The notes: generated by a model not told the origin, from the letters alone. 64,000 nt of DNA from Chiloscyllium plagiosum (GCF_004010195.1 NC_057719.1:21426892-21490891); one strand, 5' to 3'; shown: positions 16,651-59,780, numbered from the stretch's first letter. Numbers and translations: made by a program.

Positions 16651-17597
16651 CCTTATTTGTTCTAGTTTTAGAAGGTTTGTTACTACTTGATCAAATCAAT
16701 GGAGGGAATCCAAAGGGAAATTTAAACTTCAAGAAAGAGGAGAGGAGATCACAAAGTCCACAAATATGAAGGGATCTTTCTGACACCACTAGAAAATCAT
16801 TTGACAGTCCTCACAACCAGTGAAGTTAAGATGTTCGATTGTGTCACCACTCACCTCAAAAAGAAGGTAAGAGTGCAAGAAAATTTGCGTGATAACAGAA
16901 ATGGATATTCCTGTAGATTTCCCAACAGTGTAATATTCCAGCTAGAACAATGGGGTCATGTTTTAATAGGATTTCTTCCAATCCATGCTGTGACTTTGCC
17001 ATAAAATCAGAGAAGATGCAAGAGGAACAAAGTCAATGGTATTTGCACCATTTCCTTATGATTTCTGATGAAGTTATGGATGGCTAATTGTTCTATGTGC
17101 TGTGATGCCAACCACCAGCTAGTGGTTCAGATTGTTTGCTGTCAACATGTTCTTTGATTGACTAGGTCGAAGGGCTTAGCTGGTTTACACTGGTAGAAGA
17201 AACCCACTAATGAGTCTTAGCAAGGGAAGACTCTTGTTTTAAACAAGATGTAGTTGGCTACATGATAGCAATCAGGTACAAATTACATCAGTAAATGAGA
17301 CATTGTTGCTAAGATGTTTGGGAAACCTGCAGATGTAGGTCATCATCCTAAAAGATCTTAAACTGTTCTGCCTTTCCCCACCCACATTTCTATTACACCA
17401 AACAACTAGGGAGCGCTTAATGTTAGTTCAAAATTAACTCTTACAATTGTTTCCTGATTATTACCGCACAAGGTGAGTTCTATAGACGTTGTACCTTTTT
17501 GTTTTAGAATTGAGTGGGAAGCTCTTTTTTGATGAATATTCAAAGAAGGTTTAGCTGCACTGTCCTCCAATAAAATGGAGGCTGCAGAATTGAGCTA

Positions 17598-17778
17598 GGA
17601 GAAAGTGAGGACTGCAGATGCTGGAGATCAGAGCTGAAAATGTGTTGCTGGAAAAGCGCAGCAGGTCAGGCAGCATCCAAGGAACAGGAGAATCGAGGTT
17701 TTGGGCATAAGCCCTTCTTCCTGAAGAAGGGCTTATGCCCAAAACATCGATTCTCCTGTTCCTTGGATGCTGCCTGAC
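17598..17778. mobile_element. Fold-back PLE-terminal mini-element with 16-bp TSD
   Basis: TSD CTGCAGAATTGAGCTA at 17582-17597 and 17779-17794. 60-bp inverted arms 17661-17720 and 17723-17782 with one mismatch. Hammerhead core with CpG decay starts at the loop (17721). Confidence 0.88.
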
Positions 17779-18149
17779 CTGCAGAATTGAGCTATCTGAC
17801 ATGGGGTACTGTAATTGATTCCTATGACAGGATGAAGAGGAGTATTTGGAGACCAGGGAAAGAATTGTAAGAGAGAGGTTGACAGACAGAAGAGGAAAAT
17901 GAAGCTGTCAGGAGGGAGGGCAACTGAGAAGGAGGGGCCAGATAGGGGCTGACAACATTCACTGATCAAGAAGATCCTACTGGATCCACACAGTTAGGGA
18001 GAATGTACAAACTTCATCTACACAACACATGAACATCGTCTCTTTTGAGTCTGCAGATCATACATTGGACTTATCAGCCATATCATTGAACTGGAGTGGA
18101 TGCTAATCAATGTCAATGTCAAGGAATCAACTGAGAAGAATAATGTGTG

Positions 18150-19440
18150 AGGCTGAATCTTAAATTATTTTGCTGAAGTGTCAGTGTCATTGAGTTTTAT
18201 TAGAGATTTTTTTTGTTGCAAAACCTTGCAAGATCTCTCATCATGGTTAATCAATTCACCTCATTAATTACTTACCACAGTCCTATGGCGTCTCTCACAC
18301 CCAATTCTTGCTTCATTTTCCCACGCACTGTTCGTGGAACAACCCTCCACTACTCAGTGCACATTTGCCAAAAAATTGGCATCCCGAGCACAAACACCAC
18401 CCTGCTATGCAACCGGAAAGGTGTGGGCAGACCAGTGTTACCCTTCACCAGTAACATAATGGCACAGTTGTCACAAAAAAATCATGTTGCTCACAGCATA
18501 CTCCCTCTTACATACAACCCTTTCTCTCACCCTAGTCACTGTTTGAACCCAAGACCTCAGTTAACCTGCCTTTAGCTGCAATGTGTATCCACTTTCCTTC
18601 TTTAGGTCACTGCTGCACTTTCCCCAGCACCCATTGGAGACCAACATCTTGTCATTGTCCATTAGAGGAACATCACATGCAGGAGAGCAAGTGGATAATT
18701 CCAGACATAAGTTTTTGCTTACAGCCACCACAAAATAATAATTGAGTCTGCAATTCACTCCTACAATGTCAATCAAATGCTGGAATGATGGCCAATGACT
18801 ATGTGAATGCATAGTCTGCTTTCCTGTTGGGCTTTTCCAGCCATATGCTAATCTTGGCCAATGACAACGCCACTGTCCACGCTGGTCTGCTGCACCCAGC
18901 TTTCCCCTATCCTAAGCAAGTGTCAATCCGATCCTGTCCGGCTTGTAGCACCCAACACAGCCAAGCTGTGTGATGTACAAAGGAGGCTTCCTTATTCCCA
19001 ATGTTCTCATCCTCCTCCCACTCTCATTACAAGATCCAATTGGGCTGAGCACGGAACTCTAAGATGGTCCTGTAATTGTTAGGCTGAAAGTGCCCAGCAG
19101 GTTCTTTAAGATCTGATCAAAGTTAATACAAGTAGACATGTGTACATTAGTATCGAGCAAATTCATTAGCTTAATCGACTTAATATATATTAGAGACACA
19201 TGCAAGTTAATGAGTGAATCTGTTCGCTTAAACTATATGCTATACTTATGTAAACAAGTGAGTCTCCCACAACCTTCTATCTGTCAGGGACTTTGGTGAT
19301 GGTGGTACTTGAAGCTTTATCTCAGATTCTACAGTACGGGTCTTGCGAACCCCAGCCCAATGGTGAAAAGTATGATGCATGGGGTGAAAAGTCCCTCACA
19401 TTAATACTATTCATAATATAAAGTTACACGCCGAATCCCC
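18150..19440 (+). mobile_element. Degraded putative Harbinger-like DNA transposon relic
   Basis: 5' portion resembles 54860-55000 and (inverted) 23380-23550. A very degraded Myb/SANT-like coding remnant lies at ~18600-18800. Confidence 0.3.
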
Positions 19441-19729
19441 ATTTTGTTATAACTTCAGTACTTTTCCAGTCCTCAAAAATCCATGGAAAACAAGTCCAGG
19501 TGACCTCATATAGAGTGTACAAGTAGACGATTTTCACTGACCCTCAAGGTCAAACAGTCTCCCTCCCCTGTCAAACAGGCTGTTTTTGCATTAGTCCTGC
19601 TTTTCACATACATTTCCACTTTACTTCAATTGCTCATTACCCAATTAACCCTTAATTCAGCCGTAATGGTTTGGATTGCAGATAGCATTTTTAAACCCAA
19701 CACGACAGACATGGCAGACTCTCTCTGGA

Positions 19730-20035
19730 TTGGAGGTCACAGTCTAAGAATAGTCGGTGAGACTTTCAGGACTGAGATGTGGAAGAGTTTCTTCACTCAG
19801 AGTGTTTTGAATTTGTGAATTTCTGTCCCACAGCAAGTTGTTGGGGCCAGTTTATTAGATATATTCAGGAGTGGGCTGGACATGGGTTTTGTGGCTAAAG
19901 GGATCAAGGGGTTGGGAGATGAAGTGGGAATGGGATCCTGAAATTGCGTGATCAGTCATGTTCATGTTGAATGGTGGTACAGGTTTGAAGGGTCAAATGG
20001 CCTTCTCCTACACCTATTTTCTATATTTCTATGTT
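19730..20035 (+). mobile_element. CR1 LINE 3' end
   Basis: GHSLRI...FRTEMWKSFFTQ motif followed by the CR1 3' UTR (atcagtcatg..gaatggtgg..gaagggtcaaatggcct). Confidence 0.8.
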
Positions 20036-20061
20036 CCCCAGTCCAAGATTTGGAATCATAC

Positions 20062-20265
20062 CAAAGACAGAAAGTGCTGAAGAAACTCAGCAGTCCTGGC
20101 TGCATCTGTAGACAGAAAAACAGAGTTAAAATCTCAAGTCCAGTGACCCTTCATCACTATGTTAAATCTGATTTTCTCTGTACAGATGCTGCTGGACTTG
20201 CTGAACTTTAGCACTTTCCATTTTTGTTTCAGAATTCCAGCATCCACGGTTCTTTCTTTTTATTT
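20062..20265. mobile_element. Older, degraded fold-back PLE-terminal element
   Basis: Imperfect inverted repeat (aaagtgctgaagaaactcagcag..gcatctgt / acagatgctgct..ttgctgaactttagcactttc) centred near an antisense ccttcatca HHR remnant; ends ttccagcatcc..ttcttttt like other pLTRs. Confidence 0.65.
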
Positions 20266-20804
20266 CAGTGGAATCATATCTCCAGAAGCCCAGTCATCTG
20301 CTCCACCATGGGCATGGTGCACCAACTTGGTATTGGTGCCATGCCGGCCGAGTGACCACCTCATTACATCCAAAATGGAGTGCCAGCTGCACCCTGACTA
20401 TTCCAGACCCACATCGATTGTTCAACATGTCATTGCATTCAGTAGAGTTCATTGTAATACATGATGGATGATAAAGCAATTTTCTCCATCTTGCACAATA
20501 CTATTGAACAATTCACAAGTCAAGGCTTGCTTTGGCCAGCACTTGACTCCTTATAAGTAATTTCTGCATCATTCAGATACTAATGATCATTTGCAAGGAT
20601 AATGGCATCGTGAAAAGCATATTTGGCTACCACATGCAGCATATGCATGTTCCCTCTGCATGTGCTTCAAATAGGCAAAGAAATTATTAGAAATTAATAC
20701 GTAGCTAGAATGTGCTTCACGTATTTGTCCTTTCAATGTGTTACTGTCCAGTAGATGTGTACCCCATGCTTTCACGCATGAAACAGACACTGACTCTGCC
20801 CAAT

Positions 20805-20905
20805 CTAAATAGTCTTTATAGGAAGCAAAGTGTTAGGGTGTTTTATCAAGGTAACTGTGGAAGTCGGTGGGTTCTTAGTGGATACTAGTGGCCAGTCTAT
20901 AAAGA
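20805..20905 (-). mobile_element. Degraded Penelope RT fragment
   Basis: Minus strand RLATSIH*EPTDFHSYLD..HFASYKD, homologous to the RT at 11200-11273. Confidence 0.6.
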
Positions 20906-20913
20906 AACAAAGT

Positions 20914-21226
20914 GGGCAGCACGGTGGCACAGTGGTTACCACTGCTGCCTCACAGGGCCAGAGACCCGGGTTCAATTCCTGCCTCAGGCAACTGTTTGTG
21001 TGGAGTTTGCACATTCTCCCCGTGTCTGCTTGGGTTTCCTCAGGGTGCTCTGGTTTCCTTCCACAGTTAAAAAATGTGCAAGTTAGGCGAATTGGCCATG
21101 CTAAATTGCCCATAATGTTAGGTGAAGGGGTAAATGTAGGGGAATGGGTCTGAGTGGGTTGCTCTTCGGAGGGTCAGTGTGAATTTGTTAGGTCGTAGGG
21201 CCAGTTTCCACACTGTAAGTAAGTAA
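20914..21226 (+). mobile_element. HE1 SINE (V-SINE)
   Basis: GGGCAGCACGGTGGCACAGTGG tRNA-like head, V-domain GTGTGGAGTTTGCACATTCTCCCCGTGTCTGC, CR1-derived tail TTTCCACACTGTAAG. Confidence 0.92.
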
Positions 21227-26420: not shown

Positions 26421-26692
26421 GGGGCGGTGTGGTGGCACAGTGGTTAGCACTGCTGCCTCACAGCGCCAGAGAACTGGGTTCAATTCCTGCCTTGGGCAAT
26501 TGTCTGTGTGGAGTTTGCACATTGTCTGCATGGGTTTGCTCCAGTTTCCTTCCACAGTCCAAAGATGTGCAGGTTAGGTGAATTGGCCATGCTAAGTTGC
26601 CCATCGTGTCAGGGTGGGTTGCTCTTCAGAAGTTCGGTGTGGACTTGTTGGGCAGAAGGGCCTGTTTCCATGCTGTAAGTAGCCTAATCTAA
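26421..26692 (+). mobile_element. HE1 SINE (V-SINE)
   Basis: Head GGTGGCACAGTGGTTAGCACTGCTGCCTCACAGCGCCAG, V-domain and tail. Confidence 0.9.
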
Positions 26693-26696
26693 ATTG

Positions 26697-26812
26697 TGGG
26701 TGCTGGAGACCAGAAACAAAAAAAAAAATTGCTGGAAAAACTCAGCAGAAATCTATCCACAGATGTTGTCAGACCTGCTGAGATTTTTTTTGGAAATTCT
26801 TGCTTTTGTTCC
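26697..26812. mobile_element. Degraded fold-back PLE-terminal element
   Basis: gtgctggagaccagaaac..tgctggaaaaactcagcag / cctgctgagattttt..ttttgttc imperfect inverted repeat. Confidence 0.5.
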
Positions 26813-28239
26813 CAGCTTTTATTCTTAGCAATAATCCAAATTGAATGTTGGAACAGACACAAGTGAGAGAAAAACCTGTCTATGCCAATCTATTCAAGTA
26901 GACATCAAAGAATTCATGACATGAGTTGAAAAAGAGTAGACACATTGTCTGTTGTTTAGTTAACATTATCCCTGGAATCACAGTCCAAATTGAGCATGGC
27001 ATTACTTTCTTTAACTATACCCTCCATTATAATGCAGTGAAGGGCCCATTTCAAACACTGGATATGTTTTCCTCTTCATTCATTATCGATCCCCCCTGTC
27101 TATAACTATTGTCGAAGGAAAGGGCTATTGAACTTAAATCTAAGTATCTTGTTGTATTGTCTTGCCTTCCCAACCTCACCCATACACTTCCTTGTGGTGT
27201 GGCAACCCTCAGGTTAACCCAGCCAGTTCTCCATAATGAGAGAGTGGGACGATGGTGAACTTTGAGTTTTCCTGAAGGAGCTGATGCAGATAAGCAACAG
27301 AACCTCTTAATGTCCTCAGCCATCTCTGATATTGCAGTTAGTTCCTCTGCTGGATGATACATTTGATTACAATTCATGGAATCTCTGTTCTGACTAGGCA
27401 GTTAAATTATAAACATTATCCTCACAATCACCTTTCCCCCACCTCTCATCACCTTATTTCTCCTCAGGAATAAAACAACTTAGTTAGAAGGGTGCCAAAT
27501 GGGCTCTTTCTCCTTAGGTCACTGCAAATTCCTCATTGGCAAAGAGGTAAACATATCCTTGATGTTTGGGCAGTGTCAGTCAAATATAATTATCATAGCA
27601 ATTACATCATTATCCTGAGGTGTTAATTGGCAAGAAATGCTTTCCAGCTGGCAATGACCATTAGCGGTGACTAAAGTGATATCACTGGAGCAGAATAATA
27701 AAAATGAGTGTTTTGATTGCCATCAAACTATGTTGTTGAAAGATGCAGATTTATATGAACAGCAAATAGCATATTGCAATGGCTATATAAATCCTACAAG
27801 TTCAGCTAAGTCAACATTTTTTGTCCAATTTCTTGTACACTGTTCTCTTCTAAGATTTTGCACTGTAGCAAATGAGGGATTGTCAGATATAGCCCTGAAG
27901 ACAAAAGCTCAAGGAAACCAGGAGCTCCCATGATAGATTGTGTCAGCAAGAACCTTTTGCTGGGATTATGGGAGAAATAATGATGAGTGAGGTGGCCAAG
28001 GTTATCCTCTTGATTCTGAATTGCTTCTCAGTAATGCGCCAACAGGATTTGGCACAGCAGAAATAAAGACTAAATAATAATCCTTTCTGTGTCTCTTCCA
28101 GTTTAGTGGAGTATCCAAAGAATTTTGTTTGGCAAAATAATTGAGTTTAACGTGTGGAACTGTATACCATAAGTTATTACACAGCACATTTGTAATATCA
28201 GCATAGGTCAATTGAGAGCATGTTCATATTTCTGTAAAA

Positions 28240-30190: not shown

Positions 30191-30585
30191 GTTAGATTCT
30201 CTACAGTATGGAAACAGGCCCTTCGGCCCAACAAGGTAAAAACAATGACTGCAGATGCTGGAAACCAGATTCTGGATTAGTGGTGCTGGAAGAGCACAGC
30301 AGTTCAGGCAGCATCCTTCGGCCCAACAAGTCCACACTGACCCTCGAAGAGTAACCCACCCAGACCCATTCCTTTACATTTAACTCTGACTAATGCACCT
30401 AACACTGGGCAATTTAGCATGGCCAATTCACCTAACCTGAACATCTTTGGACAGTGGGAGGAAACCCACGCAGACACGGGGAGAGTGTGCAAACTCCACA
30501 CAGACAGTCGCCTGAGGTGGGAATCAAATCCAGGTCTCTGGCGCTGTGAGGCAGCAGTGCTAACCACTGAGCCACTGTGCCATCC
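30191..30585 (-). mobile_element. HE1 SINE containing a nested 79-bp PLE terminal fragment (30236-30314)
   Basis: 16-bp TSD CCTTCGGCCCAACAAG at 30220-30235 and 30315-30330 flanks GTAAAAACAATGACTGCAG...GGCAGCAT. Confidence 0.92.
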
Positions 30586-33841: not shown

Positions 33842-33941
33842 AATAAATAGAGTAAAGTGCATTTTTAAAGAAGACATTTCATTACTAATTAAAACTAATA
33901 ATGAAATGTCTTCTTTAAAAATGCACTTTACTCTATTTATT
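33842..33941. repeat. Perfect 43-bp inverted repeat with 14-nt loop
   Basis: 33842-33884 is the exact reverse complement of 33899-33941. Confidence 0.95.
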
Positions 33942-35443: not shown

Positions 35444-36181
35444 AGGCTTTATACAACCTTCTCAGTTGGGAGAGCCAGCTCTTGGAGCTGAATTACCTAC
35501 TCCTGCTCTTAATTCATATGTTTATATTAGAAAAATGTGAGTGACACACCTGTGTATTAGTAAATATAGTAGTGCAGGAACTGTCAACTCTTTAGTGGGG
35601 AATTTTCTCTCAATTGCTGGTATGAAAGATAACACTCCTGAGCATTAACTAATGAGTTAGAAGCTGGACTGGACTTGAGAGTTTCCAAATCCATCATCAA
35701 ATTATAGGAAAGAGATTCTCCCAAGCATAGCCGAATTGGTTCCCAAAATTAAATTCAGCAAGTGGAGAATGGTTACATAATACAAATAATGCGCAGATGC
35801 TCAATCCCCATCACAACAATCCGGTTGAGATTGACAGGGGAAATACCAATGATCACCATTCTGACTGGGATTTGTGGGACTGGGATTTTCCATCTCCTCC
35901 GGGGGTGAGGTTGAGTGTGGGTGTGCTCTGAACGTAGTGCTCCAGGATTCTGTGTCAGTCTTTGATGAAGCACTGGAAGTTTTAAAGGGATAGTTGTGGG
36001 GATACAAAATGCATGGCTTTGATTAACTTGGTATTAGGATGAGCTTGTTAATAGGCTAGAGAGGGTCAGAATCAAATTTTCAAAGTTAAGAATGGGAAGA
36101 GTCAATGGCCTGGGACATGTTAGTGTACAGTTGTTAAGTGCACATCACTGTCATTATATTGATTGTAGCTATTCAATATGG

Positions 36182-36395
36182 CTGTGGGTTTTGGTTTGGT
36201 GGTGGGGGGTGGGGTCATGGTCAAGGGGGCAGTAGGAGGAGGTATCTGCGAGCTGGCGTTTGGCCTCAGCGGTGTAAAGGTCGGTGCGCCAAACTACTAC
36301 CGTGCCTCCTGAAGAAGGGCTTATGCCCGAAACGTCGATTGTCCTGTTCCCTGGATGCTGCCTGACCTGCTGTGCTTTTCCAGCAACACATTTTC
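36182..36395. mobile_element. Chimeric PLE insertion: antisense RT fragment fused to a sense hammerhead/pLTR piece
   Basis: 15-bp TSD AGCTATTCAATATGG (36167-36181, 36396-36410). Minus strand of ~36208-36309 reads GGTVVVWRTDLYTAEAKRQLADTSSY, the PLE RT N-terminal region. Intact CTGAAGA..GAAACGTC at 36309-36336. Confidence 0.85.
36309..36336 (+). ncRNA. Minimal hammerhead ribozyme core (PLE family A)
   Basis: CUGAAGA-A-GGGC-UUAU-GCCC-GAAA-CG-UC. Confidence 0.7.
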
Positions 36396-36429
36396 AGCTA
36401 TTCAATATGGTCAAACTGCAGTGACACAA

Positions 36430-36642
36430 AGTCAAGAGTGTGGGGCTGGAAAGAACAACAGGTCAGGCAGCATCTGAGGAGCAGGTGAATGGATGTTTCG
36501 AGCGTAAGCCCTTCATCGGGAATGACAGCTTATGCCCGAAACATCAATTCTCCTGCTCCTCAGATGCTGCCTGACCTGCTGTGTCTTTCCAGCACTACAC
36601 TCTCGACTCTGATCTCCAGCACCTGGAGTCCTCACTTTTTCC
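36430..36642. mobile_element. Fold-back PLE-terminal mini-element
   Basis: Inverted arms (gtcaagagtgtggggctggaaaga..caggtcaggcagcatctgaggagcagg / cctgctcctcagatgctgcctgacctg..tctttccagcactacactctcgac) turning at ~36518-36527, at a decayed HHR core. Confidence 0.82.
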
Positions 36643-37094
36643 TGAGTCCTTGATAAGTAAGCGTTTGGACACTTGTGTGGACTGTAAGGACTCTGACGCT
36701 TTACTGGTCTGCCTGCTCCATTCCTGCAGACAATGGCAAGTCCAGGAGATCTTGCTACTTGCTGTTTAAACAAGTGCTTTCATTCTCCCCGTGCCTGTGC
36801 TCCTGTCGTTTGGAAACCGATCCTGTCAATTAGAGTTTTTCCCTTTGAAAATCATATGTGTCACTGACAAAATGCATGGTTCGGCAATTGTGTTCCTAAC
36901 CCTGGATTGAAAATCAATCATATGGTGGCACAGTATTCAACATTAAATTAAACATCTTTTGATCACTTTGAACTTCTTTTATAGCACAACACATCTAGTG
37001 GGGATCCATCACTCCTTTCACACATTCTTATCTTACTTTCCATTGTATCCTTGTTGAAGTTATTGCACTGGTCTTCCTTAACTTCGCACAGGTA

Positions 37095-37363
37095 AAAATC
37101 ACACAGCACCGGGTTATAGTCCAACAGTTTAACTGGAAGCACACTAGCTTTCGGAGCGACGCTCCTTCATCAGGTGGTAGTGGAGGACACAATTGCAAGA
37201 CACAGAATTTATAGGAAAAGTTTACAGTGTGATGTAACTGAAATTATACATTGAAAAATACCTTGATTGTTTGTTGAGTCTTTCATCTGTTCGAAAACCA
37301 TGATAGTTTCACTTCTTTCTGGTGTTGTGTGATTTTTAACTTTGTACACCCCAGTCCAAATCA
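37095..37363 (-). mobile_element. PLE family B terminal element with hammerhead and partially inverted end
   Basis: 12-bp TSD TTCGCACAGGTA (37083-37094, 37364-37375); aaaaatcacacagcaccgg ... ctggtgttgtgtgattttt inverted ends; same family as 58702-58898. Confidence 0.82.
37142..37176 (-). ncRNA. Minimal hammerhead ribozyme (PLE family B)
   Basis: Reverse complement CAC-CUGAUGA-A-GGAGC-GUC-GCUCC-GAAA-GC-UA-GUG: stem I CAC/GUG, 5-bp stem II, palindromic AGCU. Confidence 0.78.
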
Positions 37364-38946
37364 TTCGCACAGGTAGTTTAGCCTATTGTTTTCTCTGTTT
37401 CAAATGTTTTATTGTCCCAGAGAAACCTGCTAAGCTCATAAAATTGAGGTGTGACAATGCTGGGGAATGAATATTTAATGGACAGTTTTAATAATACTTG
37501 TATGGAGATCTGATGGTCCATCATTCAAATGGATTATCCCCCTTTTGTTTGACATTGTTCCTAACTCCTCAGCTTGAAAGGGTTTTGCACCACAAAATAA
37601 GGGTGAAGAAGGAAATAACTTTTTATAAGGTATAGAATGATCAATTAAGAAAGGGTGAAAAGATAAGAGTGACTGGAATAGAAAGGTTGCAGAAGGGGAA
37701 AGAAAAAACAATGCAAAACTGTTAAATTTACCACATTTAAAATATTTTAAGTACAGTTGGCTACTGACAGGAATAAAACACCACTGTTTCAATTGTTTTT
37801 TTTTCCTTCTTCGGCTAGAGAAGTTGAAGAGTGTTGTAGGTACACTCATTATTAAATGAGGTATTGCTTTGTCAAGTTTTACCTCTGAATTTCTACAGGA
37901 GATTGAATGCGCACTTATCTCAGAAATACCACAACTTCTTGTAATAAGTGGGAGGTTGATGGTGAGGTAATGTCTCCATGATGTTTATAATGGAATGATG
38001 CAAAGCAGAAATATCAAGTGAGTTACAAATTGACACAAACTGCTGAGTAATTTACTCACTAAGAATGAGATGAACAATTAAATCCACCTTCTGGACCATT
38101 GCCTTTTCATTTCAAAACATTTATCATTATTCACTTTAGTCAATATTTCGCCTTCAATAATTTCAGCGAATATGTAGCTGTATGTAAAACCTAATCAATA
38201 GCTCATAAGGTCTATTTGCCTCTTCGCCCATTAAATCAGCATGAACGTATAATCATAACATTTTACAGAACAAAGCAGAGCATTTAAAAAACAGCAAGTT
38301 GCTGTGAGACCCAAATCAACCCGAGTGCTGATTAATATCCACACTTAATGGAAGCACATTTATAGGCTGAGTTCCCATCATATCCATAAAGGATGTTTAA
38401 CTTCTGTCCCAGGGGCTAACCATTTGTGATATTTATAGGTGAAAGCCACTGCCACTATTTCTAATTGCTTGACTGGATCAAAGGGCCCATCAGGTTTACT
38501 GGAGTAGAGGAACAACCACTAAGTCTTCACAAGAAGAGGCTATTGTGTTGACAAGATACAGTTTTGTGTATGGTAGAGGTGAGGAGAAGTTACATTAGCT
38601 AGTTATCAGAGCATTGTTGCTAAAACAATTGAGAGGCATAGAATACACATTTATCTCTTTCTAAGGTCAAGCTATTTTTCATGACTTTCACATCCAAGAT
38701 GGCATGACATTATCAGGTTGGGTAGACCTTAATGAAGTCTCCAACACGACCCTTTCAGAACCAATACATTATAAAGCAACTGCAAGCTAGAGAAAGCCAC
38801 TTTCTCATTTTCCTGCATCTTTGTTTCTTACATGTTAGTTCCAATTCTAACAAATTCAGAATTTAAATGAGTTAAAATTTTGCTCAAGTGTGTCAGGATT
38901 TTTTATTCCTTGGCTCTATTTACTCACTGTACTTGAGCTCAAACTT

Positions 38947-39069
38947 AGGTAAAAACAATGACTGCAGATGCTGGATTCCTGATGAAGGGCTTTTGCCCGA
39001 AACGTCGATTTCGCTGCACCTTGGATGCTGCCTGAACTGTTGTGCTCTTCCAGCACCACTAATCCAGAA
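38947..39069. mobile_element. PLE-terminal mini-element with internal inversion and 14-bp TSD
   Basis: TSD TTGAGCTCAAACTT (38933-38946, 39070-39083). The first ~28 bp are antisense pLTR end and the rest is sense pLTR beginning at the HHR. Confidence 0.88.
38979..39006 (+). ncRNA. Minimal hammerhead ribozyme core (PLE family A)
   Basis: CUGAUGA-A-GGGC-UUUU-GCCC-GAAA-CG-UC, intact. Confidence 0.72.
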
Positions 39070-40270
39070 TTGAGCTCAAACTTGTCTATTGCATTTGTTA
39101 GAGGATGATTAAGAAGCTTTACAATGGAAAGATTAGATTGGCTTCCTTGTGATGTAATAAGACTTAAAGATAGGCAGAAGAAGAAATTACAAGAAGCAAA
39201 TATTCACAGAAGAAATCGAAGGCTATAATTAATTTTTACTTGATGTGGTGAAATCAGCAGAGTGGAAAATAAAGTCCAAAGTTAGAACTACATAATTCTT
39301 TAAAATTCAGTTGCTTAAATACCAATACTGTGTTGAATATAGACACCTTAATTTAAAGACATATTTTATAATAATTATTAATTCTCCAAGGGCTATTAAA
39401 ATACCACTCTGCAGCCCTGTCATTCCTCAACTGTATGAGTGCAGAATACTATCTGGATTTAAAAAAAAATGTTTTAATTCACTTCAGTCAGCACAGATTG
39501 GGAATATTGTCCCTAATTAACATGTCACTTGCCAACATCCCAATCGAATTAATAGAAGTTGGTGGGAGGCATCTGCATACCAGTTAAAATTAGCAGCAGA
39601 AAGCAGGGAATTGAGTAGAAGAATAAGAATTGATTTCATCAAGTGCAGAATTATGTAGTATAAAATTGAACAGGATATGGGTAGCAACCGGTCCATGCTC
39701 TACTTAAACCTTCTCCCAACCTTTCTTATGCAAATCCATCCAAATCTCTCGTTTTTGCCCCATATCATTACCTGGCCTCACTTTAAATGCATCTATGCTA
39801 TTCACTTCAACCAGATACAAATGAAACAAATCCTACACTTTCACCACTCTCTTCCTAAAGAGATTTCTTCTGAATTCTGAACTGGCGATTTGTTTTTTCT
39901 TTTGTTCCTATTCCACACTTCACTCAATCTCCAGCTCTCTTCACATTAAGAGGCCAATCTCTTAGGACATCATCTCTTCCACCACCTATGAAGAAGAATT
40001 CACAGATCCCTCAGAGATACATGAGCAAGGCTGCCTCTTTATCCTCCACCAATGCAGATACTGATGCTTTGGCAGTATGTTAGCTAGATGAGAACTGGGA
40101 CAATATGCTGGTGAGCTGTTTGGGGGTTTTTCTTTTTCCCAGCATCGAGAATCTCATTTTTTCTGATTTAACCATATCTTCCAACTGGCTCAGCATTACT
40201 AACATTATCCAGGGGCTAGGATAATTCAGACCTGGGATTGGGGATCACAGATTCAGGATGATATGAAGAG

Positions 40271-40613: not shown

Positions 40614-40874
40614 ACTAATTTTGAGATCATGTTTCGTATAGCTAGCTCCTTCACCATTTTCAGTTGGTCTGTCTCTGTTTGAAGTTTCTTTGACACCTTT
40701 AAATGTTACATCTCTTTGGTCCCACACAGAGATTTCACCACCAATCACTGAATTTATACCAGTAGCCATTTGTCTCTGCAGCAGTCCTCATTCAATATCA
40801 CAACTTGGAACTAAAGGCTAAAATTATCCATCCTATTTTGAGGTTCTGACTTATCACCATAACACATTGTACAC

Positions 40875-41945
40875 CAGTCCCACCCCCCCTCCCATTTATC
40901 TCACCATTCCCTCAGCTTGAAGGGCTTTTGCCCAAAATGTTGATTTTCCTGCTCCACGAATGCTGCCTGACCTGCTCTGCTTTTATAGCACTACATTCTC
41001 GACTCTGATATATCGCATCATCCTTCGCCATTTCTGCCACCTGAAAACCTACCAGAGATATATTTCCCTTCCCACCCCTATCCGCTTTCTGAAAAGACCA
41101 TTCCCTCCACGACTCCCTCTTCNNNNNNNNNNNNNNNNNNNNNNNNNNNNNNNNNNNNNNNNNNNNNNNNNNNNNNNNNNNNNNNNNNNACACCACCCCC
41201 ACCAATCAGCTTTCCCCTCCTGGAACTTTCTTCTGCCACCATAGGAATTGCAAAACCTGTGCTCACACCTCCCCGCTCACCTTGGTCTAAGGCCCAAAGG
41301 AGCCTTTCGCATACATCAGAGTTTTACCTGCACTTCCACATGTATCATTTACTGTATCCATTCCTCCCGATCGGTCTCCTCTACATTAGGGAGACAGGAT
41401 GCCTACTCTCAGAGTGCTTCAGAGAACGCATCTGGGACACCCACACCAACAACTCCACTGCCCCGTGGCCGACCAGTTCAAGCTCCCCTCCCACTCTCCC
41501 AAGGACATTCAGGTCCTGGTTCTCCTCCATCACCACTCCCTAACCACCCGATGCCTGGAGGAAGAACACCTCAGCTTTCGCCTTGGGACCCTCCAACCCA
41601 ACAGCATCAGTGTGTATTTCACCAGTTTCCTCATTTACCCTCCCCCCACCTTATCCAAGTTCCAACCTTCCAATTCAGGACCATCCTCATGACCTGTCCT
41701 ATCTGCCCATCTTCCATCTCACCTATCCGCTCCACCCTCCTTTCCGACCTATCACCATTACCCCCACCTCCATCTACCTATCGCACTCTCAGCTATTTTG
41801 CTCCCAGCCCCACACCCCTCCCATTTATCTCACGACCCCCTTGGCTCACAACCCCATTTCTGATAAAGGGCTTGTGCCCGAAACATTGATTCTTTTGTTT
41901 TTTGGATGCCGCCTAACCTGCTGTGCTTTTCCAGCACCACTGTCT
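40875..41945 (+). mobile_element. Penelope-like element 3' half: partial upstream pLTR, GIY-YIG endonuclease remnant, 3' pLTR
   Basis: FTCTSTCIIYCIH...LLYIRETG..LSECFRE (GIY-YIG-like, frameshifted), RLGTLQPN; pLTR with decayed HHR at 40917-40942 and 41860-41890. Confidence 0.88.
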
Positions 41946-42019: not shown

Positions 42020-43245
42020 ATAGAGTCATAGAGATGTACATGACGGAAACAGATCCTTTGGTCCAACTTGTCCTTGCCGACTTGATATCCCAACCTAATC
42101 TAGTCCCGCTTGTCAGCTCATATACCTCCAAACCCTTTCTATTCATATACCATCCAGATGCCTTTTAAATGTTGCAATGTATCAGCCTCCACCAGTTCCT
42201 CCGGCAGCCCATTCCACACACATACCACCCTCTGCGTGAAAAAGTTGCCCTTAGGTCTCTTTTATATCCTTCCCTTCTCACCCTAAACCTATGCCTTCTA
42301 GTTTTGGACTCCCCAACCCAGGAAAAGACCTTGTCTATTTACCATATTCATGTCCTTCATGATTTATAAACCTCTATAAGGACACCCCTCAGTCTCCGAC
42401 GCTCCAGGAAAAACAGCCCCAGCCTGTTCAGCCTCTCCCTATAGCTCAAATCCTCCCACCCTGGCAATATCCTTGTTAATCTTTTCTGAGCCCTTTCAAA
42501 TTTCACAACATCTTTCCGATAGGAAGACCAGAATTGCTTGCAATATTCCAAAAGTGGCCTGACCAATGTCCTGTACAGCCACAACTCCTGTACTCAACAA
42601 GGTAAAAACAATGACTGCAGATGCTGGAAACCAGATTCTGGATCAGTGGTGCTGGAAGAGCACAGCAATTCAGGCAGCATCCTGCTCGTCGGATCCTGTA
42701 CTCAATACTCTGACCAATAAAGGAAAATATACCCAATGTTTTCTTCACTATCCTGTCTAGCTGCAACTTTACTTTAAAGGAGCAATGAACCTGCACTCCA
42801 AGGTCTTTTTGTTCAGTAACACTCCTTAGGACCTTCCCATGAAGTGTATAGGTCCTGCTAAGATTTGCTTTCCCAAAATGCAGCCCCTGACATGTATCTA
42901 AATTAAGCTCCATCTGCCACTCCTCAGCCCATTGGCCCATCTGATCAAGATCCTGTTGTAATCTGAGTTAACCTTCTTTGTTGTCCACCATACCTCCAAT
43001 TTTGGTGTCATCCACTAACTTGCTAACTATACCTCCTACATTTACATCCAAATCATTTATACAAATGATGAAAAGTAGTGGACCCAGCATCGATCCTAGT
43101 GGCACTCCACTGGTCACAGGCCTCCAGTCTGAAAAACAACCCTCCAACACCACTCTCTGTCTTTTACCTTTGAGCCAGTTCTATATCCAAACGGCTAGTT
43201 CTCCCTGTATTCCATGAGATCTAACCTTGCTAGTCAGTCTCCCAT
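42020..43245 (-). mobile_element. CR1 LINE 3' half with nested PLE terminal fragment (42598-42693)
   Basis: [33 protein letters not shown]. The nested fragment is flanked by TSD TCCTGTACTCAA (42586-42597, 42694-42705). Confidence 0.9.
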
Positions 43246-45150: not shown

Positions 45151-45677
45151 CATTTTTGAAACTGTTCGGTGAATTGACTAACAATTGCTTTGGGTCAGTA
45201 TGCTATGTGTAGGAACAAAACAAGTTCCCTTTCCAGCTCATTGATAGAATGATAGATTACAGCAGATATTCTGAGTGACAGAATTTATTCAGCGAAGGAA
45301 CAGTTATGATGTTTGAGAGCATATGATGTTATAGAGCATGCCTTCTTATGGTGCTCAACATCCTTTCTTAATGTGCCCCCTGTGATTCATGATTTTCTAC
45401 ATATTGCTTGCTCATGCATTGCAATTAAGTATATCCGAGTTGAGGGGTTATGAGTAGAGTTTGAACTGAGCCAGCTCGTGGGTAGCCTGTAAGTCAGACA
45501 ACTCAATATTGTGTGTGCAGCAAAGAAACATGTCTGTCGTAATTTGAAGGGTATTCTGTGCTTTAATGAGCTGGGTCTCAATGGGTAAGTAGTTATTTGG
45601 TGCTTTGTTGTATTGTATGAAAAGAGTGGATGGAATATCATGCTCGATATATCAGTTAACAGTTTTTTTTCTGTGGG

Positions 45678-45810
45678 GTAAAAACAATGACTGCAGATGC
45701 TGGAAACCAGATTCTGGATTAGTGGTGCTGGAAGAGCACAGCAGTTCAAGCAGCATCCAAGGAGCAGCGAAATCGACGTTTCAGGCAAAAGCCCTTCATC
45801 AGGAATAAAG
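45678..45810 (-). mobile_element. PLE family A terminal fragment including hammerhead core (45775-45802)
   Basis: GGTAAAAACAATGACTGCAG...GACGTTTCAGGCAAAAGCCCTTCATCAGGAATAAAG; near identical to 10348-10480. Confidence 0.88.
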
Positions 45811-46399
45811 GTAGATGATCCAGGAGATAATTGTGCACAGTTGGTGACGTTGATGTGACACATCACATGACATGGAATATGATGTCGATGTCATAATAAG
45901 GCCAAGTTTGACTTGAGCTACAGCATGGTGCCACCTCATTTGTTTCGGCAGTGCAGAAAGTGAGTTGTGGCTACATGTAGACGTAAGAAGGTGTTGCAAC
46001 TTTAAATCACCTGTCTCTTGCAGCATTTTGTGACACCATTTCATAAGACGTTCAGGTGACAAAGAAGGTTTCTCTGAGAAATATGATATGTCTGAAAGGG
46101 GCAGTGAATGGGGTACATGGTCAACAACAGCTGAGCACTAGCAAACTGAAAAATTGTATGAGATCCCTTGTAGCTAGTTCACTTAGTATGCAGTATCTAC
46201 ATCTTTCCAGTGGCACACAGCCTTAGGTTCAGCTCTGTTCTGAATTTCTGACCCCTTATCCATTCACTCTACTGTCTCCTCCTTCCTTCTTCGCTACCTC
46301 ACACAGTTTGGAAGCCACTGACACTCTCAGCCATGATTAGTCACTTACCAATTATCAACGTCTGCTGCAAATGTCAATTCATCCAAATCTCTGTTCTTC

Positions 46400-52169: not shown

Positions 52170-52722
52170 GTCATACAGTCATGCTGTATAGCGTGATAAC
52201 AGACCCTTCAGTCCGACTCATCCATGCCGACCAGATATCTTAAATTAATCAAGTCCCATTATCAACGTTTGGCCCATATCCCTCTAAACCCTTCTTATTC
52301 ATATACCCATCAAGATGCCTTTTCAATGTTATAATTGTACCAGCCCCCACCACCTTCTCTGGCAGCTCAATCTTTGTGAAAAAGTTGCCTCTTGGTTCCC
52401 TTTTAAATTTTTCCCTTCTCACCTTTAACCTATGTCCTCTAGTTTTGGACTCGACTATCCTGGTGAAAAGAGCTTAGCGATTCATGCTTTCCATGCCCCT
52501 CATGATTTTGCAAACCTCTAATAAGGTCACCCCTCAGCTTGCAACTCTCCAGGGAAAATAGCCCAAGCCATTTCAGCCTCTCCCTACAGCTCAAACCGTC
52601 CGACCCTGGCAACATCCTTGTAAATCTTTTCTAAACCCTTTCAAGTTTCACAGCATCATTCCCACAGCAGGGAGACCAGAACTAAATGTAATATTCCAAA
52701 AATAGCTTTCACAATACAATCT
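52170..52722 (-). mobile_element. CR1 LINE 3' fragment
   Basis: Antisense CR1 3' end, homologous to 6857-7400. Confidence 0.85.
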
Positions 52723-52727
52723 TGTAT

Positions 52728-52922
52728 TAAAAGAACTGCGGATGCTGGAATCCAAAATAGACAGGCAGGAGGGTGGAAGAACACAGCAAGCCAGGCAGCA
52801 TCAGGAGGTGGAGAAGCCAATGTTTTTGGGGCAGGGTGGGGATAAAGACAGGTTACACCAAAACATCGACTTCTCCACCTCCTGATGCTGCCTGGCTTGC
52901 TGTGTTTTTCCAGCCTCCTGCC
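52728..52922. mobile_element. Fold-back PLE-terminal mini-element (third variant)
   Basis: ggcaggagggtggaagaacacagcaagccaggcagcatcaggaggtggagaag..tgtttt / aaaacatcgacttctccacctcctgatgctgcctggcttgctgtgtttttccagcctcctgcc. Confidence 0.82.
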
Positions 52923-52999
52923 CAGCCACCATACAAACTGAAGCAGTTCAAGAAGCAAGTTCAGCACCACCTTCTCAAAAGCAACTTAGGATAGACAAT

Positions 53000-53905
53000 C
53001 TCGGTGTCCAGGTACACAGATCCTTGAAAGTTGCCACCCAGGTTGACAGGCTTGTTAAGAAGGCATACAGTGTTTTAGCTTTTATTAATAGAGGAATCGA
53101 GTTCTGGAACCATGAGGTTATGCTGCATCTGCACAAAACTCTGGTGCAGCCGCACTTGGAGTATTGTGTACAGTTCTGGTCACCACATTATAAGAAGGAT
53201 GTGGAAGCTTTGGAAAGGGTGCAGAGGAGATTTACTAGATGTTGCCTGGTATGGAGGGAAGGTCTTATGAGGAAAGGCTGAGGGACTTGAGGCTGTTTTC
53301 GTTAGAGAGAAGAAGGTTGAGAGGTGACTTAATAGAGACATATAAGATAATCAGAGGGTTAGATAGACTGGACAGGTCGAGCCTTTTCCAAGTATGGTGA
53401 TGGCGAGCACGAGGGGGCATAGCTTTAAATCAAGGGGTGATAGATATAGGACAGATGTCAGAGATAGTTTCTTTACTCAGAGAGTAGTAAGGGTATGGAA
53501 TGCTTTGCCTGCAATGGTAGTAGATTTGCCAACTTTAAGTACATTTAAGTCGTCATTGGACAAGCATATGGACGTACATGGAATAGTGTAGGTTAGATGG
53601 GCTTCAGATTGGTATAAACAGGTAAAAACAATGACTGCAGGTGCTGGAAACCAAATTCTGGAGTAGAGTGGTGCTGGAAAAGCATAGCAGTTCAGGCAGC
53701 ATCCGAGGAGCAGGAAAATCGATGTTTCGGGCAAAAGCCCTTTGAAGGACTTTTGCCCGAAACGTCGATTTTCCTGCTCCTCGGATGCTGCCTGAACTGC
53801 TGTGCTTTTCCAGCACAACTCTACTCCAGATTCAGATTGGTATGACAGGTCGGCGCAACATCGAGGGCTGAAGGGCCTGTACAGCGCTGTAATGTTCTAT
53901 GTTTT
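53000..53905 (+). mobile_element. 5'-truncated CR1 LINE
   Basis: LEYCVQFWSPHYKKDVEALERVQRRF, TRGHSFK..FFTQRVVRVWNALP. Confidence 0.92.
53616..53830. mobile_element. Fold-back PLE-terminal mini-element nested in the CR1 3' UTR
   Basis: 13-bp TSD TTCAGATTGGTAT (53603-53615, 53831-53843); ~85-bp inverted arms 53657-53741 and ~53745-53830 turning inside the HHR. Confidence 0.9.
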
Positions 53906-55322: not shown

Positions 55323-55641
55323 GTAAGTGGGGGCCAAAGCATCAGACACTGCCAACCTGATTGAATAGCTACCATCTCAACTGGGTCAACTTATCATCTG
55401 TCTCCCACCTCCACCAGCGCTGCTAATTATGCCATCTGCCTTCATTTTACTGAACCCTTTCCTTTATCTCATCACAGCAGTAAGCGGCCTGTAAGAACAG
55501 GGAAGTGGCAGAAAGAGTTAGATTCAGCTCCTCAGCCCTTATAAGGAGAGGATTTTGGCATTGAATAGCAAAGTTTGGGACCACTTCTGTGGGGACAAAT
55601 AACACTCCATGCCCAGCAACTAAATCAGCCACATCATTGGT

Positions 55642-55950
55642 GGGCGGCACGGTGGCACAGTGGTTAGCACTGCTGCCTCACAGCGCCAGAGACCCGGGGT
55701 CAATTCCCGCCTCAGGCGACTGACTGTGTGGAGTTTGCACGTTCTCCCCGTGTCTGCGTGGGTTTCCTCCGGGTGCCCCGGTTTCCTCCCACAGTCCAAA
55801 GATGTGCAGGTCAGGTGAATTGGCCATGCTAAATTGCCCGTAGTGTTAGGTAAGGGGTAAATGTAGGGGTATGGGTGGGTTGCGCTTCGGCGGGTCGGTG
55901 TGGACTTGTTAGGCCGAAGGGCCTGTTTCCACACTGTAATCTAATCTAAT
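55642..55950 (+). mobile_element. Young full-length HE1 SINE
   Basis: GGGCGGCACGGTGGCACAGTGG...TTTCCACACTGTAATCTAATCTAAT. Confidence 0.95.
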
Positions 55951-58059
55951 TCATTATTGTGCAACTCTCCCATTCCCCCACTCTATTTTAAGTTAAAACA
56001 CCACAACTTTACTGAACTTGGTTGTGACATTTCCTCTCTTGTCTCCCATGGGAACCAATGGGATATCCACAATGCTGAGATAAAAAGGGCTGCCCTGCAA
56101 AACATACACTTCTCAGCCTCTGAGGAAAAGAGCATAGACTCCTCACAGAAAGTGCCACCACCCACTCCACTCTCATCAGTTGGGCAGTTGTGTAGCTATG
56201 CTTAAATTGCAATAATCCTGCTTCTGAGTGAAAAAATGCAGACAGTTCCTGAAAATAGAAATCCTGATTTTAATTTCTGGATTTACATTGAATGGGATAC
56301 TTTTGCCTGCCCTTCATTGTGTATATTAGATCCCAGGGAAGCTGCTGTCAGTATAAAACTAACCATCCTATCAACTTGTATAAAGATTTGTTTGGTCATG
56401 GATAAAGCTTTCAAATTGTGATCTGTCACTCTGTTAATCAGCCTGAAAAGCTTACACTATTTCACATTATTCTCCAAGGCAAGACTGCAAAACATACAAA
56501 GTCAACAACATTGTAACGACAAATGATTTTCCTCATGAAGGTAATTCCTTATATAGTGGTCTCTTTGGACAATGGCTTCCCTTATGTAATTTAAAGCTGT
56601 CAGAAATATATGCAAACCTTTATCTGAGACCACACGTCTGGACTTCCCAGGCAAATATCCTTAGTACCTTTGATTTTGACATGAAACATCATACATCATT
56701 GCTCCTTCAGGATCTGTTGATGAATGCACTACACTGTCCCAAAAGATACTCAATGCATAACCACAGAGAATTCTCTCAGGTGTTTTTTGATATATGCTGA
56801 TAAAGTGCATCTGACAGACACTTAATACACCTGCCTCTTAACTGTGCAATTGTCGTTTTTTTTTAAATACTTGAGCAATAACAGCAACATAATTAAATGC
56901 AGTTGTACTGTAGGAAACCTTGTCAGACCATGTTATTGCGCTGGGAGCAAATGAGACCTTTCTTCATGAGTCAAAATCAACTGTTTGACAGCAGAGTTTG
57001 GTACCAGTCTAGTTTAACTGAGCTGAACTAAGTTCACGCTCCTTTTTTAGACACGACGGCATCGTTCTATTTAAGTCGGCACCCGGGCCTGACATGGAGC
57101 CATTCCATGAAAATGGAATAGATCAAATATTACTGATGCCAACAAAGAATGGATGGGATTAATATGAAGTAATTTATGTGGAAAATTTATTAGTGAAAGG
57201 ATTAAAAGGAAATTACTTGACATATTTTTCAAGAGACATTAAACCATCTGTTCTCCCAACTGGATGCAAAATATCCAACAACACTATCTCAAAGCGAAGT
57301 GGAATTAACTTGAATCACGGAACAATGTCCAAGTGGGAGCTGCTCCCATGGAGTCAGATTCATCTTGAACTATGCTGGGTCCAATATTGCAGTGAATTAA
57401 GCCATGGTCTGGGCTTTAAAATAAATAGCATTTCTTTTTTATTCACTCATCCAGCTCGAGCATTACTGGCTGGGCTAACATTTATTGCCTGTCCCTTGTT
57501 GCCCTAGAGAAACTAATGGTGATTTTACTTCTTGAATCCCTGAGCTCTATTTGATGCAGGTAAACCCACAATGCTGTGAGGGAGACAATTCTCGGATTTT
57601 TACCCAATGACACTGAAGGAACGGTGATATATTTCCAACAGGATGGTAAGTGGAGAACTTGCATGTTCTACTGTTCTCATGTGTCTGCTGCCCTTGTCCT
57701 TCATAAAGTGTTTGTGGGTTGGGAAGTGCTGCCTATGGATTGGCACAAAATTCAGCAGTGCATCTTGCATATAGTGCACACTATTGCTCCTGAATATCAG
57801 TGGTGGAGTGACTGAGTGTTAGTGGATGTGATGCCAATCAAGTGGCTGATTTATCCTGGATGATGTCAAGCTTCTTGATTGTTGTTAGAGAAAGTAATGA
57901 ATCATGTAAGAAGCGATGTGCAATATTAAAGGAAAACAATGAGATAATAGAGCTGGATAAATAATCTGGGTAATAATAACCAGAATGTGGCAGGATGGGA
58001 CAAAAAATACAAATTTTAGAGTTCACCAACCGATGAGGCAAAATGGCAAAATGGCACAG

Positions 58060-59780
58060 TTAAAGGCTCTGTATCTGAATGGACACAGCATTTACAGCAA
58101 AATTAATCAATTATTAGCACAGGTAGGGATAAACATGTATTTACTGTTCATTATCACAGACATCGGAAGCAGAAATTCCTTTGGGGATTTGATATAGTAA
58201 CTTTGACTGAAATGTGACTCAAGCCAGACCAGGACTGGATCCTCAACATTCCAGGTTGTAAGGTTTTTAGTAGAAACAGGGTGGGTAAAATAGGAGGAGG
58301 TGTAGCAGTCTTGGTCAAAGATACTAACATAGCCCTTGAGTACGCAGTTCTTAAGTGAGAATCTAAATGAGTGGAGGTGAGAAACAGGAACTGAGCTGAG
58401 ACCTTGTTAATTCTCAATCTCGCAATAGTTCAGAGGAAGTGGAAGAGATCATTTCTAGGCAGATTATGAAAACCTGTAGGACAAGTAAGATCATAATAGT
58501 TGGTGATTTCAATTATCCTCGGATAGATCAGGGGAAGAAAAACTGAGAGTGTGGGTCATTGAAGGGGAGAGATTGCTGCAATGTATGCAGGAGACCTTTC
58601 TGGAATACAAGTACTATCAGGGAGGGGTCAATGCTGGATCTGGTCTGAGGAAATGAGGAAAGCCAAGTGGAGAATGTCAAATTGGAGGAGCATTGCAGAA
58701 AAAATTTGGAGATGCTGGTGTTGGACTGGGGTGTACAAAGTTCAAAATCACACAACACCAGGTTGTAGTCCAACAGGTTTAATTGGAAGCATTAGCTTTC
58801 AGAGCACTGCTCCTTCATCAGGTGATTGTCAGCGCTCTGAAAGCAAGTGCTTCCAAATAAACCTGTTGGACTATAACCTGGTGTTATGTGATTTTTAACA
58901 TTGCAGAAATAGCACTCATAACATAAGAAGTTCACATTAAGTTGGAAAAGAATTAAAATCAGTCAAAGATTAAGATCCCAGACTGGCAAAGAGCGGGTTT
59001 TAATGGTCTAAAAGTTGAACTGGAGCAGGCTGATGGGAAATGCATTTTGGTGGATAAAACAACAGTTGAAAAATGGAATAATTTTAGTGAGAGATGAATA
59101 GGATGCAAATTAGGTACATATCCATGAGAAATAAATCCAGGGTATTCAAAGGTAGAATATCCTAGACGACTTTGATGAGATGACGATATTGATGACGATA
59201 TTGATGAGAAAAAAAGTAAGGAATGCCTACCAAAATAAAAATAGAAAGAGAAATGAGGAGGAGTATCTCAAATGCAGGAGAGAGGTTAAAGCTGGAATGA
59301 GAAAGGCAAAAAGGAAGCAAGAGAAAATGATGGCAGGGTGCACTGAAGTGAATATGAAGATTTTCTTCAAACATTTTAATCATAAAAGATTGGTAAAGGA
59401 TAATTTTGAGCCTACTAGGAATGAGCAGGGTAACCTGCTCACTGAAGCAAAGGATATGGCAGAGGTACTGCGTAGATACTTTGCTTTTGTCTTTACCAAT
59501 TTGGACAACAGTGACAATGACCCAGTTGAGCAACTGAGCAGTGGCAGTGATGGATAAAGAAGAGTTGCTAAAAAGGCTGGCAGGGGAATGGAGGATTGTA
59601 AATTTGACACTGTTGTTAGAGAAAGGGACAAAGGATAACTCAGAAAACTACAGACCTATCAACTTGATATCAATAATGGGAAAACTGATGGAGGGCATAA
59701 TACAGGATAAGATAAATATAAATATAAAAAGAAAATAAGTTAATACCAGACAGTCAATATGGCTTTGTCAAGGGGAGAAA
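58060..59780 (+). mobile_element. Degraded CR1 ORF2 (endonuclease to start of RT)
   Basis: LKALYLN..SI, GGGVAVLVK, IVGDFNYP, MAEVLRRYFAFVFT, NYRPINLISIMGKLME. Confidence 0.85.
58702..58898. mobile_element. PLE family B fold-back mini-element with hammerhead (58791-58824, minus strand)
   Basis: 11-bp TSD CATTGCAGAAA (58691-58701, 58899-58909); inverted arms ~58745-58810 and 58831-58896; reverse complement CAC-CUGAUGA-A-GGAGC-AGU-GCUCU-GAAA-GC-UA. Confidence 0.85.

Follow-up and report, generated by a model that had tools for sequence, protein, structure and literature searches.

Hairpin insertions built from Penelope-like element ends in a shark genome turn beside the hammerhead motif

The window analysed here is a stretch of 64,000 nucleotides (nt) of Chiloscyllium plagiosum DNA (GCF_004010195.1 NC_057719.1:21426892-21490891), in which all positions are counted from the first letter. 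We mapped 16 insertions of Penelope-like elements (PLEs) in it, about 4.3 kb or 7% of its length. Seven are palindromes, in which the end of a PLE, its pseudo-long terminal repeat (pLTR), is joined head to head to an inverted copy, usually at or near a hammerhead ribozyme motif. An earlier note on this DNA had singled out these palindromes as a family of their own; the palindromes are real, although they are only a subset, 7/16, of the PLE insertions. We report that these insertions are dead on arrival, that their arms end at the front edge of the hammerhead more often than selection of examples can explain, and that priming from both ends of a broken target is the explanation to which we incline.

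Results

Palindromic insertions

Positions within an arm are counted from the first C of the CUGANGA box (position 0), so that the predicted hammerhead cut falls after +27. The palindromic insertions are given below with the strand of each arm, the inverted repeat found by an inverted-repeat scan, and the target-site duplication (TSD).

17598..17778, head-to-head pair, subfamily A2: tailed arm (-) ending at +2..+5, short arm (+) from -3..0 to about +57; inverted repeat 17661-17782, arms 60 nt, 98%; TSD 17582-17597 / 17779-17794, 16/16 matching.
20063..20268, older head-to-head pair, family D: short arm (-) ending about +1, tailed arm (+) from about +23; inverted repeat 20087-20204; TSD 20051-20062 / 20269-20280, 12 nt, 1 mismatch.
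26697..26831, old decayed head-to-head pair that includes no hammerhead: arms ending about +57 and +35; TSD 26685-26696 / 26832-26843, 12 nt, 1 mismatch.
36430..36643, head-to-head pair, subfamily A3: short arm (-) ending about -4, tailed arm (+) from +10; inverted repeat 36427-36611, arms 55+28 nt, 91/86%; no TSD found at the two boundaries.
52720..52926, head-to-head pair, family C: arms ending about +16 and +8, spacer of about 17 nt, CUGANGA box absent; inverted repeat 52764-52922, arms 63 nt, 94%; weak TSD (52710/52927), 10 nt with 1 mismatch, a score reached by 13/295 random boundary pairs.
53618..53830, head-to-head pair, family A: tailed arm (-) ending at +6, short arm (+) from +4, whole core in neither; inverted repeat 53657-53830, arms 86 nt, 95%; TSD 53603-53617 / 53831-53845, 15 nt, 1 mismatch.
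58704..58898, head-to-head pair, family B: tailed arm (-) ending about -8, short arm (+) from about +12; inverted repeat 58736-58903, arms 74 nt, 89%; TSD 58691-58703 / 58899-58911, 13 nt, 1 mismatch.

All five hairpins of the earlier note, which began three of them at 52728, 53616 and 58702, were thus recovered, with arms of 55-86 nt, 89-98% complementarity and predicted folds of -105 to -169 kcal/mol. The two older copies that it placed at 20062 and 26697 are likewise real, the first from the same scan and the second from a profile built from the arms. The hairpins had been described as a PLE end joined to a copy of itself; the pLTR origin stands, but the arms are unequal, one of each pair bearing a tail of about 35 nt. 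In the family C hairpin, a spacer of about 17 nt (52833-52849) separates the arms.

By alignment, the turns of the 17598, 36430, 53616 and 58702 copies do lie at or beside the CUGANGA box, as had been claimed. The turns cluster at the hammerhead but not on its cut site, which lies about 15-35 nt downstream of them. The clear TSDs of the 17598, 53616 and 58702 copies support the claim that the palindromes were inserted as units. Among 295 random boundary pairs, which served as the null for TSDs, a score of 10 or more was reached by 2; the same score is reached by 12/16 insertions.

Identity of the element and of the hammerhead

On sequence likeness, the repeat is the 3' end (pLTR) of endonuclease-bearing PLEs, and its copies fall into four or more pLTR families (A, which has subfamilies, B, C and D). 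A piece of PLE body at 11000-11272 matches 45/64 candidate proteins, the best at 85-88% (Chiloscyllium punctatum). The matched proteins include single proteins that carry a PLE reverse transcriptase (RT) with a C-terminal GIY-YIG domain in one frame (e.g. P0014, P0019); the window itself has broken fragments only. By tblastn, the endonuclease region lies at 41051-41665, and 36182-36309 is a PLE RT frame (P0002 aa 209-247, 92%). A Pfam scan of seven window fragments gave no match.

A descriptor scan of the window located perfect minimal hammerhead cores at 10472, 36309, 37173, 38979, 45802 and 58821, and cores with one mismatch at 17721, 36519 and 41860; six more one-mismatch hits fall outside the pLTR repeats. 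The core at 17721, in the 17598 palindrome, reads AAAA for GAAA, and that of the 36430 palindrome reads CCGA for CUGA. An intact core is present in 1/5 hairpins (58821, in 58704..58898). An Rfam scan returned no hammerhead family, only nine weak matches far below the gathering score (hairpins of microRNA type and one viral element). In A1, A2 and A3 arms (45677-45802; 36528-36643), a frame starts with an ATG at about +46 and continues through the end of the tail, as expected if the pLTR carries the first codons of the open reading frame (ORF).

Arms end at the front edge of the hammerhead

We hand-mapped 27 pLTR arms, excluding the RT-frame arm at 36182. Nine end before +16, and of the 18 that reach +16, 14 then end in the interval -12..+16. 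From the rate of ending before that point, 12% would be expected (binomial P 2e-10; 8e-5 even if this rate is tripled). An arm ending in the interval is found in 9/16 insertions, three of which are not palindromes. The clustering of turns at the hammerhead therefore exceeds a selection effect. At the cut site (+24..+32), only 1/20 arms ends (P 0.5), and we reject the idea that cleavage by the ribozyme causes the turn.

As a stand-in for a genome-wide census of copies, DNA contigs of two species (X1 and X16) and RNA reads from a poly(A) single-cell library (X21) were aligned to one reference pLTR, that of the A1 copy at 10348..11273 (stretch 10330-10748). The contig figures come from 18 of 965 rows of loose ends and 15 of 65 joints, and the X1 counts are lower bounds. 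A peak of loose ends, formed by at least 268 contigs in X1 and by 229 in X16, lies at 10476 (-4), some 30 nt upstream of the predicted ribozyme cut. Beyond it the contigs continue at length into mixed sequence (median 224 nt in X1 and 174 nt in X16; agreement 0.34 and 0.33, respectively). Other peaks in X16 stand at 10346 (+126; 185 contigs) and 10381 (+91; 143 contigs).

RNA depth is about 400 at +3..+16, about 85 at -12..-25 and about 45 farther upstream, against about 170 in the A1 tail bin; part of the fall arises because other subfamilies match the pLTR only. Both strands are about equally represented in these reads, and 95% of them continue into unlike sequence, many copies being pooled.

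The sequence YYANWYY is the initiator consensus. In A1 and the 41860 copy, the A at -4 has surroundings of this initiator-like kind; 1.2% of window positions match. The A1 pLTR also reads ATT at -4..-2. The intron of Drosophila Penelope adjoins helix I (PMC4209133); a splice acceptor at -4 was considered and rejected, since A1 has no AG ahead of -4.

Each hairpin has its own junction

If the hairpins were an amplifying family, similar to a short interspersed element (SINE) or a miniature inverted-repeat transposable element (MITE), the same junction and ends should recur at many loci. Instead, the junctions of all seven palindromes in the window differ (7/7), and at least four families are represented. 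Three strand-switch joints occur among the 15 of 65 joints examined, with summed depths of 13-54 over 1-5 contigs, where the pLTR has a summed depth in the millions; perfect palindromes can collapse in contigs, which limits these joint depths. None of the 15 joints is present in the RNA reads. No tandem pLTR array occurs among the window's seven tandem repeats, the arms are inverted rather than head to tail, and a whole hammerhead is the exception. Because the junctions all differ, the joints examined are shallow and 1/5 cores is intact, these insertions are dead on arrival and not an amplifying retrozyme, contrary to one of the two origins first proposed for them. Very probably, each hairpin arose de novo where it landed.

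The other insertions of the window

The nine remaining insertions are single-armed, non-overlapping or tandem.

10348..11273 (-), A1 PLE, about 925 nt from its 3' side: last part of the RT-thumb region, N gap, 3' untranslated region, pLTR with an intact core at 10472; TSD 10336-10347 / 11379-11390.
30236..30314 (-), single A1 tailed arm ending at +44; TSD 30220-30235 / 30315-30330.
36182..36395, RT-frame fragment (36182-36309, -) and pLTR short arm from -2..0 (36307-36395, +); TSD 36167-36181 / 36396-36410, 15/15.
37095..37363, two-armed, family B: short arm (-) reaching about 145 nt past the hammerhead (core at 37173), tailed arm (+) from +60; TSD 37083-37094 / 37364-37375.
38947..39067, two-armed and non-overlapping, A1: tail only (+126..+97, -) and short arm (-4..+88, +); TSD 38931-38946 / 39068-39083.
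40874..41945 (+), partial tandem: pLTR (40874-41009), 5'-truncated body with a broken GIY-YIG-type region, second pLTR with its core at 41860.
42598..42693, A1 tailed arm (-) ending at +44, with an inverted piece of about 13 nt (+35..+47); TSD 42586-42597 / 42694-42705.
45677..45811 (-), lone A1 tailed arm that ends near -10, with the core at 45802 intact; no TSD found.
63833..63911 (+), single tailed arm from about +27, with internal deletion; TSD 63823-63832 / 63912-63921.

Over the whole window, then, seven insertions are palindromic, four are two-armed with little or no overlap, four are single-armed and one is a partial tandem; two-armed insertions make up 11/16. TSDs are clear in 12 (10-16 nt), weak in one and absent in three. 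The non-palindromic insertions have the same two outer ends as the palindromes, about +126 for tailed arms and +80..+92 for short arms in the window alignments, and likewise have TSDs.

Several of these sites show further features. The insertion at 10348 ends with a near-exact copy of about 105 nt (11274-11378) of flank lying about 100 nt downstream (11487-11594), inside the 12-nt TSD; this is a templated insertion that arose during joining. The A1 arm at 30220-30330 sits inside the window's abundant SINE-like repeat, 16 nt of which are duplicated. The arm at 63833-63911, starting about +27, is the sole candidate for a copy of ribozyme-cleaved RNA.

Elsewhere in the window, 62622-62740 and 63146-63264 form an inverted repeat of 119 nt (99%, A+T-rich, 405 nt apart, not pLTR-like, no TSD); it may have arisen by a recent inverted duplication or by a small inversion. 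A perfect hairpin of 49 nt at 33842-33941 is 96% A+T and unrelated to the pLTR, and no TSD was found around it. An exon-like frame at 13530-13655, a host-gene candidate, had no PDB match, and no RNA run was found to contain the unique stretch 12000-17550.

Discussion

Proposed priming from both ends of the target

We lean, by a modest degree, towards the view that the hairpins are cut-short PLE insertions, each likely made anew by two-ended priming and run-off and not copied from a hairpin master. The observations on which this view builds are the PLE origin, the TSDs, the two fixed outer ends, the head-to-head joining, the varied junctions and the pile-up of 5' ends. Two insertions are especially informative. 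At 36182 and 38947, one arm has sequence that its partner lacks, and that arm was therefore not copied from the partner. In both (36182-36395 and 38947-39067), the two target strands appear each to have been primed on RNA, and we infer that the palindromes likewise consist of two complementary DNAs (cDNAs) from two start sites.

The steps would be as follows. The PLE protein would cut both target strands, 10-16 nt apart, and each target 3' end would prime reverse transcription on element RNA, usually one at the start site in the tail and one internally. Many cDNAs would be templated by the pLTR that forms the transcript's 5' end and would stop where that RNA runs out, its first base lying at about -4. 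After a loss of 0-20 nt, the 3' ends of the two cDNAs would be joined to each other, in many cases where 1-3 letters are shared. Two cDNAs that both ran far would give a palindrome with its turn at the hammerhead; early stopping of one of them, or priming elsewhere, would give a non-palindromic insertion. The ribozyme would thus mark the turn by its position and not by its cleavage.

This scheme draws on the study of a Poseidon element from Anolis carolinensis, PAc, in which the tail is bounded by two RT start sites, and cutting and extension take place on both strands of the target (Frangieh et al. 2024, PMC11167929). The outer ends at +126 and +91 match these two start sites. PAc activity depends on ORF sequence beyond the start sites (PMC11167929). 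On a messenger RNA this sequence lies behind the 5' pLTR, so that priming in the 5' pLTR would give a short run-off cDNA. The simplest reading of the stop near -4 is that the template has its first base there; in Drosophila Penelope, transcription begins within the upstream pLTR, from an internal promoter (PMC2377424).

A broader reading, which we hold only tentatively and would not call probable, is that the stubs are the in vivo footprint of PLE integration: a dimeric protein, priming from both strands, and cDNAs resembling strong-stop products that end at a transcription start 4 nt before the core. If true, it would account for the inverted pLTRs, for the tail and for the dependence of full-length movement on a tandem copy; the PLE integration step could then be read directly from thousands of shark junctions.

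Several points weigh against two-ended priming with run-off at -4. The interval -12..+16 was picked after the data had been seen, the arms of one insertion are not independent, and the ends are approximate for families C and D and for the insertion at 26697. The contig signal is a peak among 18/965 loose-end rows rather than a full profile. The plurality letters of the loose ends at -4 look like those of a sister subfamily that likewise becomes less similar to the reference at -4; a mixture with one subfamily would explain about 10-15% of the -4 contigs, and several subfamilies could give more. The RNA reads, which are from the poly(A) single-cell library, show no site where many molecules start or stop. 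Family B lacks the initiator-like match, and the ATT present at -4 is the cut motif preferred by the anole endonuclease (PMC11167929). Two short arms end off the usual site (+57 at 17598 and +47 at 42598), as fold-back permits, and 4/16 insertions have a single arm.

Alternative explanations

The earlier note's first proposal was fold-back at the ribozyme structure. On this view a single cDNA would halt at the hammerhead, by stalling or by ending there, and would be extended from its own 3' end with itself or an antisense strand as template, so that the second arm copies the first; such insertions, too, would be de novo and dead on arrival. Self-priming has been proposed for PLE inverted junctions (PMC3846280), and the displaced short arms of 17598 and 42598 suit it. 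The arms within one insertion are also nearest or joint-nearest to each other (1, 2 and 5 differences in 52 nt); such likeness, however, is equally expected from two copies of one RNA. Fold-back may have made some of the copies, but it fails for 36182, with its RT-frame arm, and for 38947, with its tail-only arm, neither of which is present in the partner, and it does not predict that the outer end of most short arms is fixed at +80..+92. As a general account we consider it unlikely.

It is also possible that priming is two-ended and that the stop at -4 is set by a cut of the element's own endonuclease at ATT, or by a roadblock of protein or structure. PAc cuts mostly at 5'-ATT-3' near its own ORF-pLTR junction, its hammerhead is protein-assisted (PMC11167929), and the A1 pLTR has ATT at the right place. 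A structural roadblock, however, should stop RT on the 3' side of the motif, at about +31, where only 1/20 arms ends; and family B has no ATT there, yet one of its arms ends near -8. We regard a stop of this kind as improbable.

We give very little credence to the second proposal of the earlier note, a non-autonomous retrozyme-like family, in which PLE proteins would insert transcribed palindromic units again as palindromes. Other DNA can be mobilised in trans by pLTRs (PMC3846280), and a pLTR origin has been proposed for animal retrozymes (bioRxiv 10.64898/2026.07.22.740005). The units are alike in size (181-214 nt) and have their ends in cis, but the likeness in size follows from the fixed outer ends. 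Besides the distinct junctions, shallow joints, missing tandem array and broken cores reported above, the predicted fold would trap the 3' half of the one intact core in a long duplex.

Palindromes are hard for assemblers, and the 36430 copy has no TSD, but an assembly artefact or post-insertion rearrangement is scarcely credible given arms that differ by 2-11%, TSDs that hug both ends in 12/16 insertions, and strand-switch joints in contigs of two species.

Significance

As elements, the stubs are ordinary, if dense, debris. Their value is mechanistic, in that they bear on the route to the inverted pLTRs of PLEs, for which self-priming has been proposed (PMC3846280). This genome holds a large natural set of such junctions, which could tell fold-back from two-ended priming and indicate where the template has its 5' end. 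If transcribed, the hairpins would add many RNA duplexes of 60-90 bp, possible substrates for editing or silencing.

The suggestion that this is an undescribed system finds no support: an inverted 5'-truncated copy with a tail is typical of PLEs (PMC8557442), and pairs of minimal hammerheads on opposite strands have been noted (PMC4209133). The architecture is already known. Neither the pile-up of 5' ends nor the two-ended reading turned up in the portions of the literature surveyed. Searching the open literature by title and opening of the abstract, we found no earlier account of pLTR-only palindromes or of PLE twin priming; nor did the available portions of these papers give a count of inner ends at the 5' edge of the hammerhead. 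Inverted pLTRs are mentioned in PMC5753468 and PMC8969392, with nothing further on palindromes in the parts available.

Comparison with known systems

The published PLE unit is a 5'-truncated copy with an adjacent inverted 5'-truncated copy and a tail of 30-40 bp at one end (Craig et al. 2021, PMC8557442; Arkhipova et al. 2013, PMC3846280). The window shows the corresponding parts: a minimal type I hammerhead in the pLTR, inverted truncated copies, a one-ended tail, a partial tandem and TSDs. Published units share with ours the head-to-head pLTRs, the tail on one arm, TSDs of about 8-16 nt, partial tandems and the pLTR hammerhead. The window differs in that many units are reduced to the pLTR on both arms, with inner ends piled at the 5' edge of the hammerhead.

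PAc is predicted to act as a dimer and inserts without need of hammerhead cleavage. It has 126 nt of pLTR ahead of its start codon and hammerhead, whereas the shark arms mostly end at the edge of the motif. The PAc work was done in vitro; in the portions available, it does not address formation of the second arm or the junctions, and leaves later steps unvalidated (PMC11167929).

With the minimal hammerheads of metazoan PLEs, the window shares the CUGANGA box, one unpaired base, a short stem II, GAAA and a palindromic CG in place of stem III, as well as the prevalence of solo copies linked to truncated PLEs. The opposite-strand pairs noted there lie 100-700 bp apart (Cervera and De la Pena 2014, PMC4209133). 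In the window, by comparison, stem II has 4-5 bp, the paired copies lie directly next to each other, and usually at least one of the two cores is clipped.

Non-LTR retrozymes resemble the window's units in being small, non-coding, hammerhead-bearing and pLTR-related (Cervera and de la Pena 2020, PMC7229834; Li et al. 2026, bioRxiv 10.64898/2026.07.22.740005). Their defining form is the head-to-tail tandem with a whole ribozyme per unit, and they are expressed as monomeric linear and circular RNA, whereas the units described here are head to head, single and mostly broken in the core.

In L1 twin priming both target strands prime on the RNA, and the resulting insertions, like those at 38947 and 36182, carry an inverted 5' segment within a single TSD. 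The L1 segments do not overlap and their second priming site is variable, whereas here the arms often overlap fully and begin at two fixed starts.

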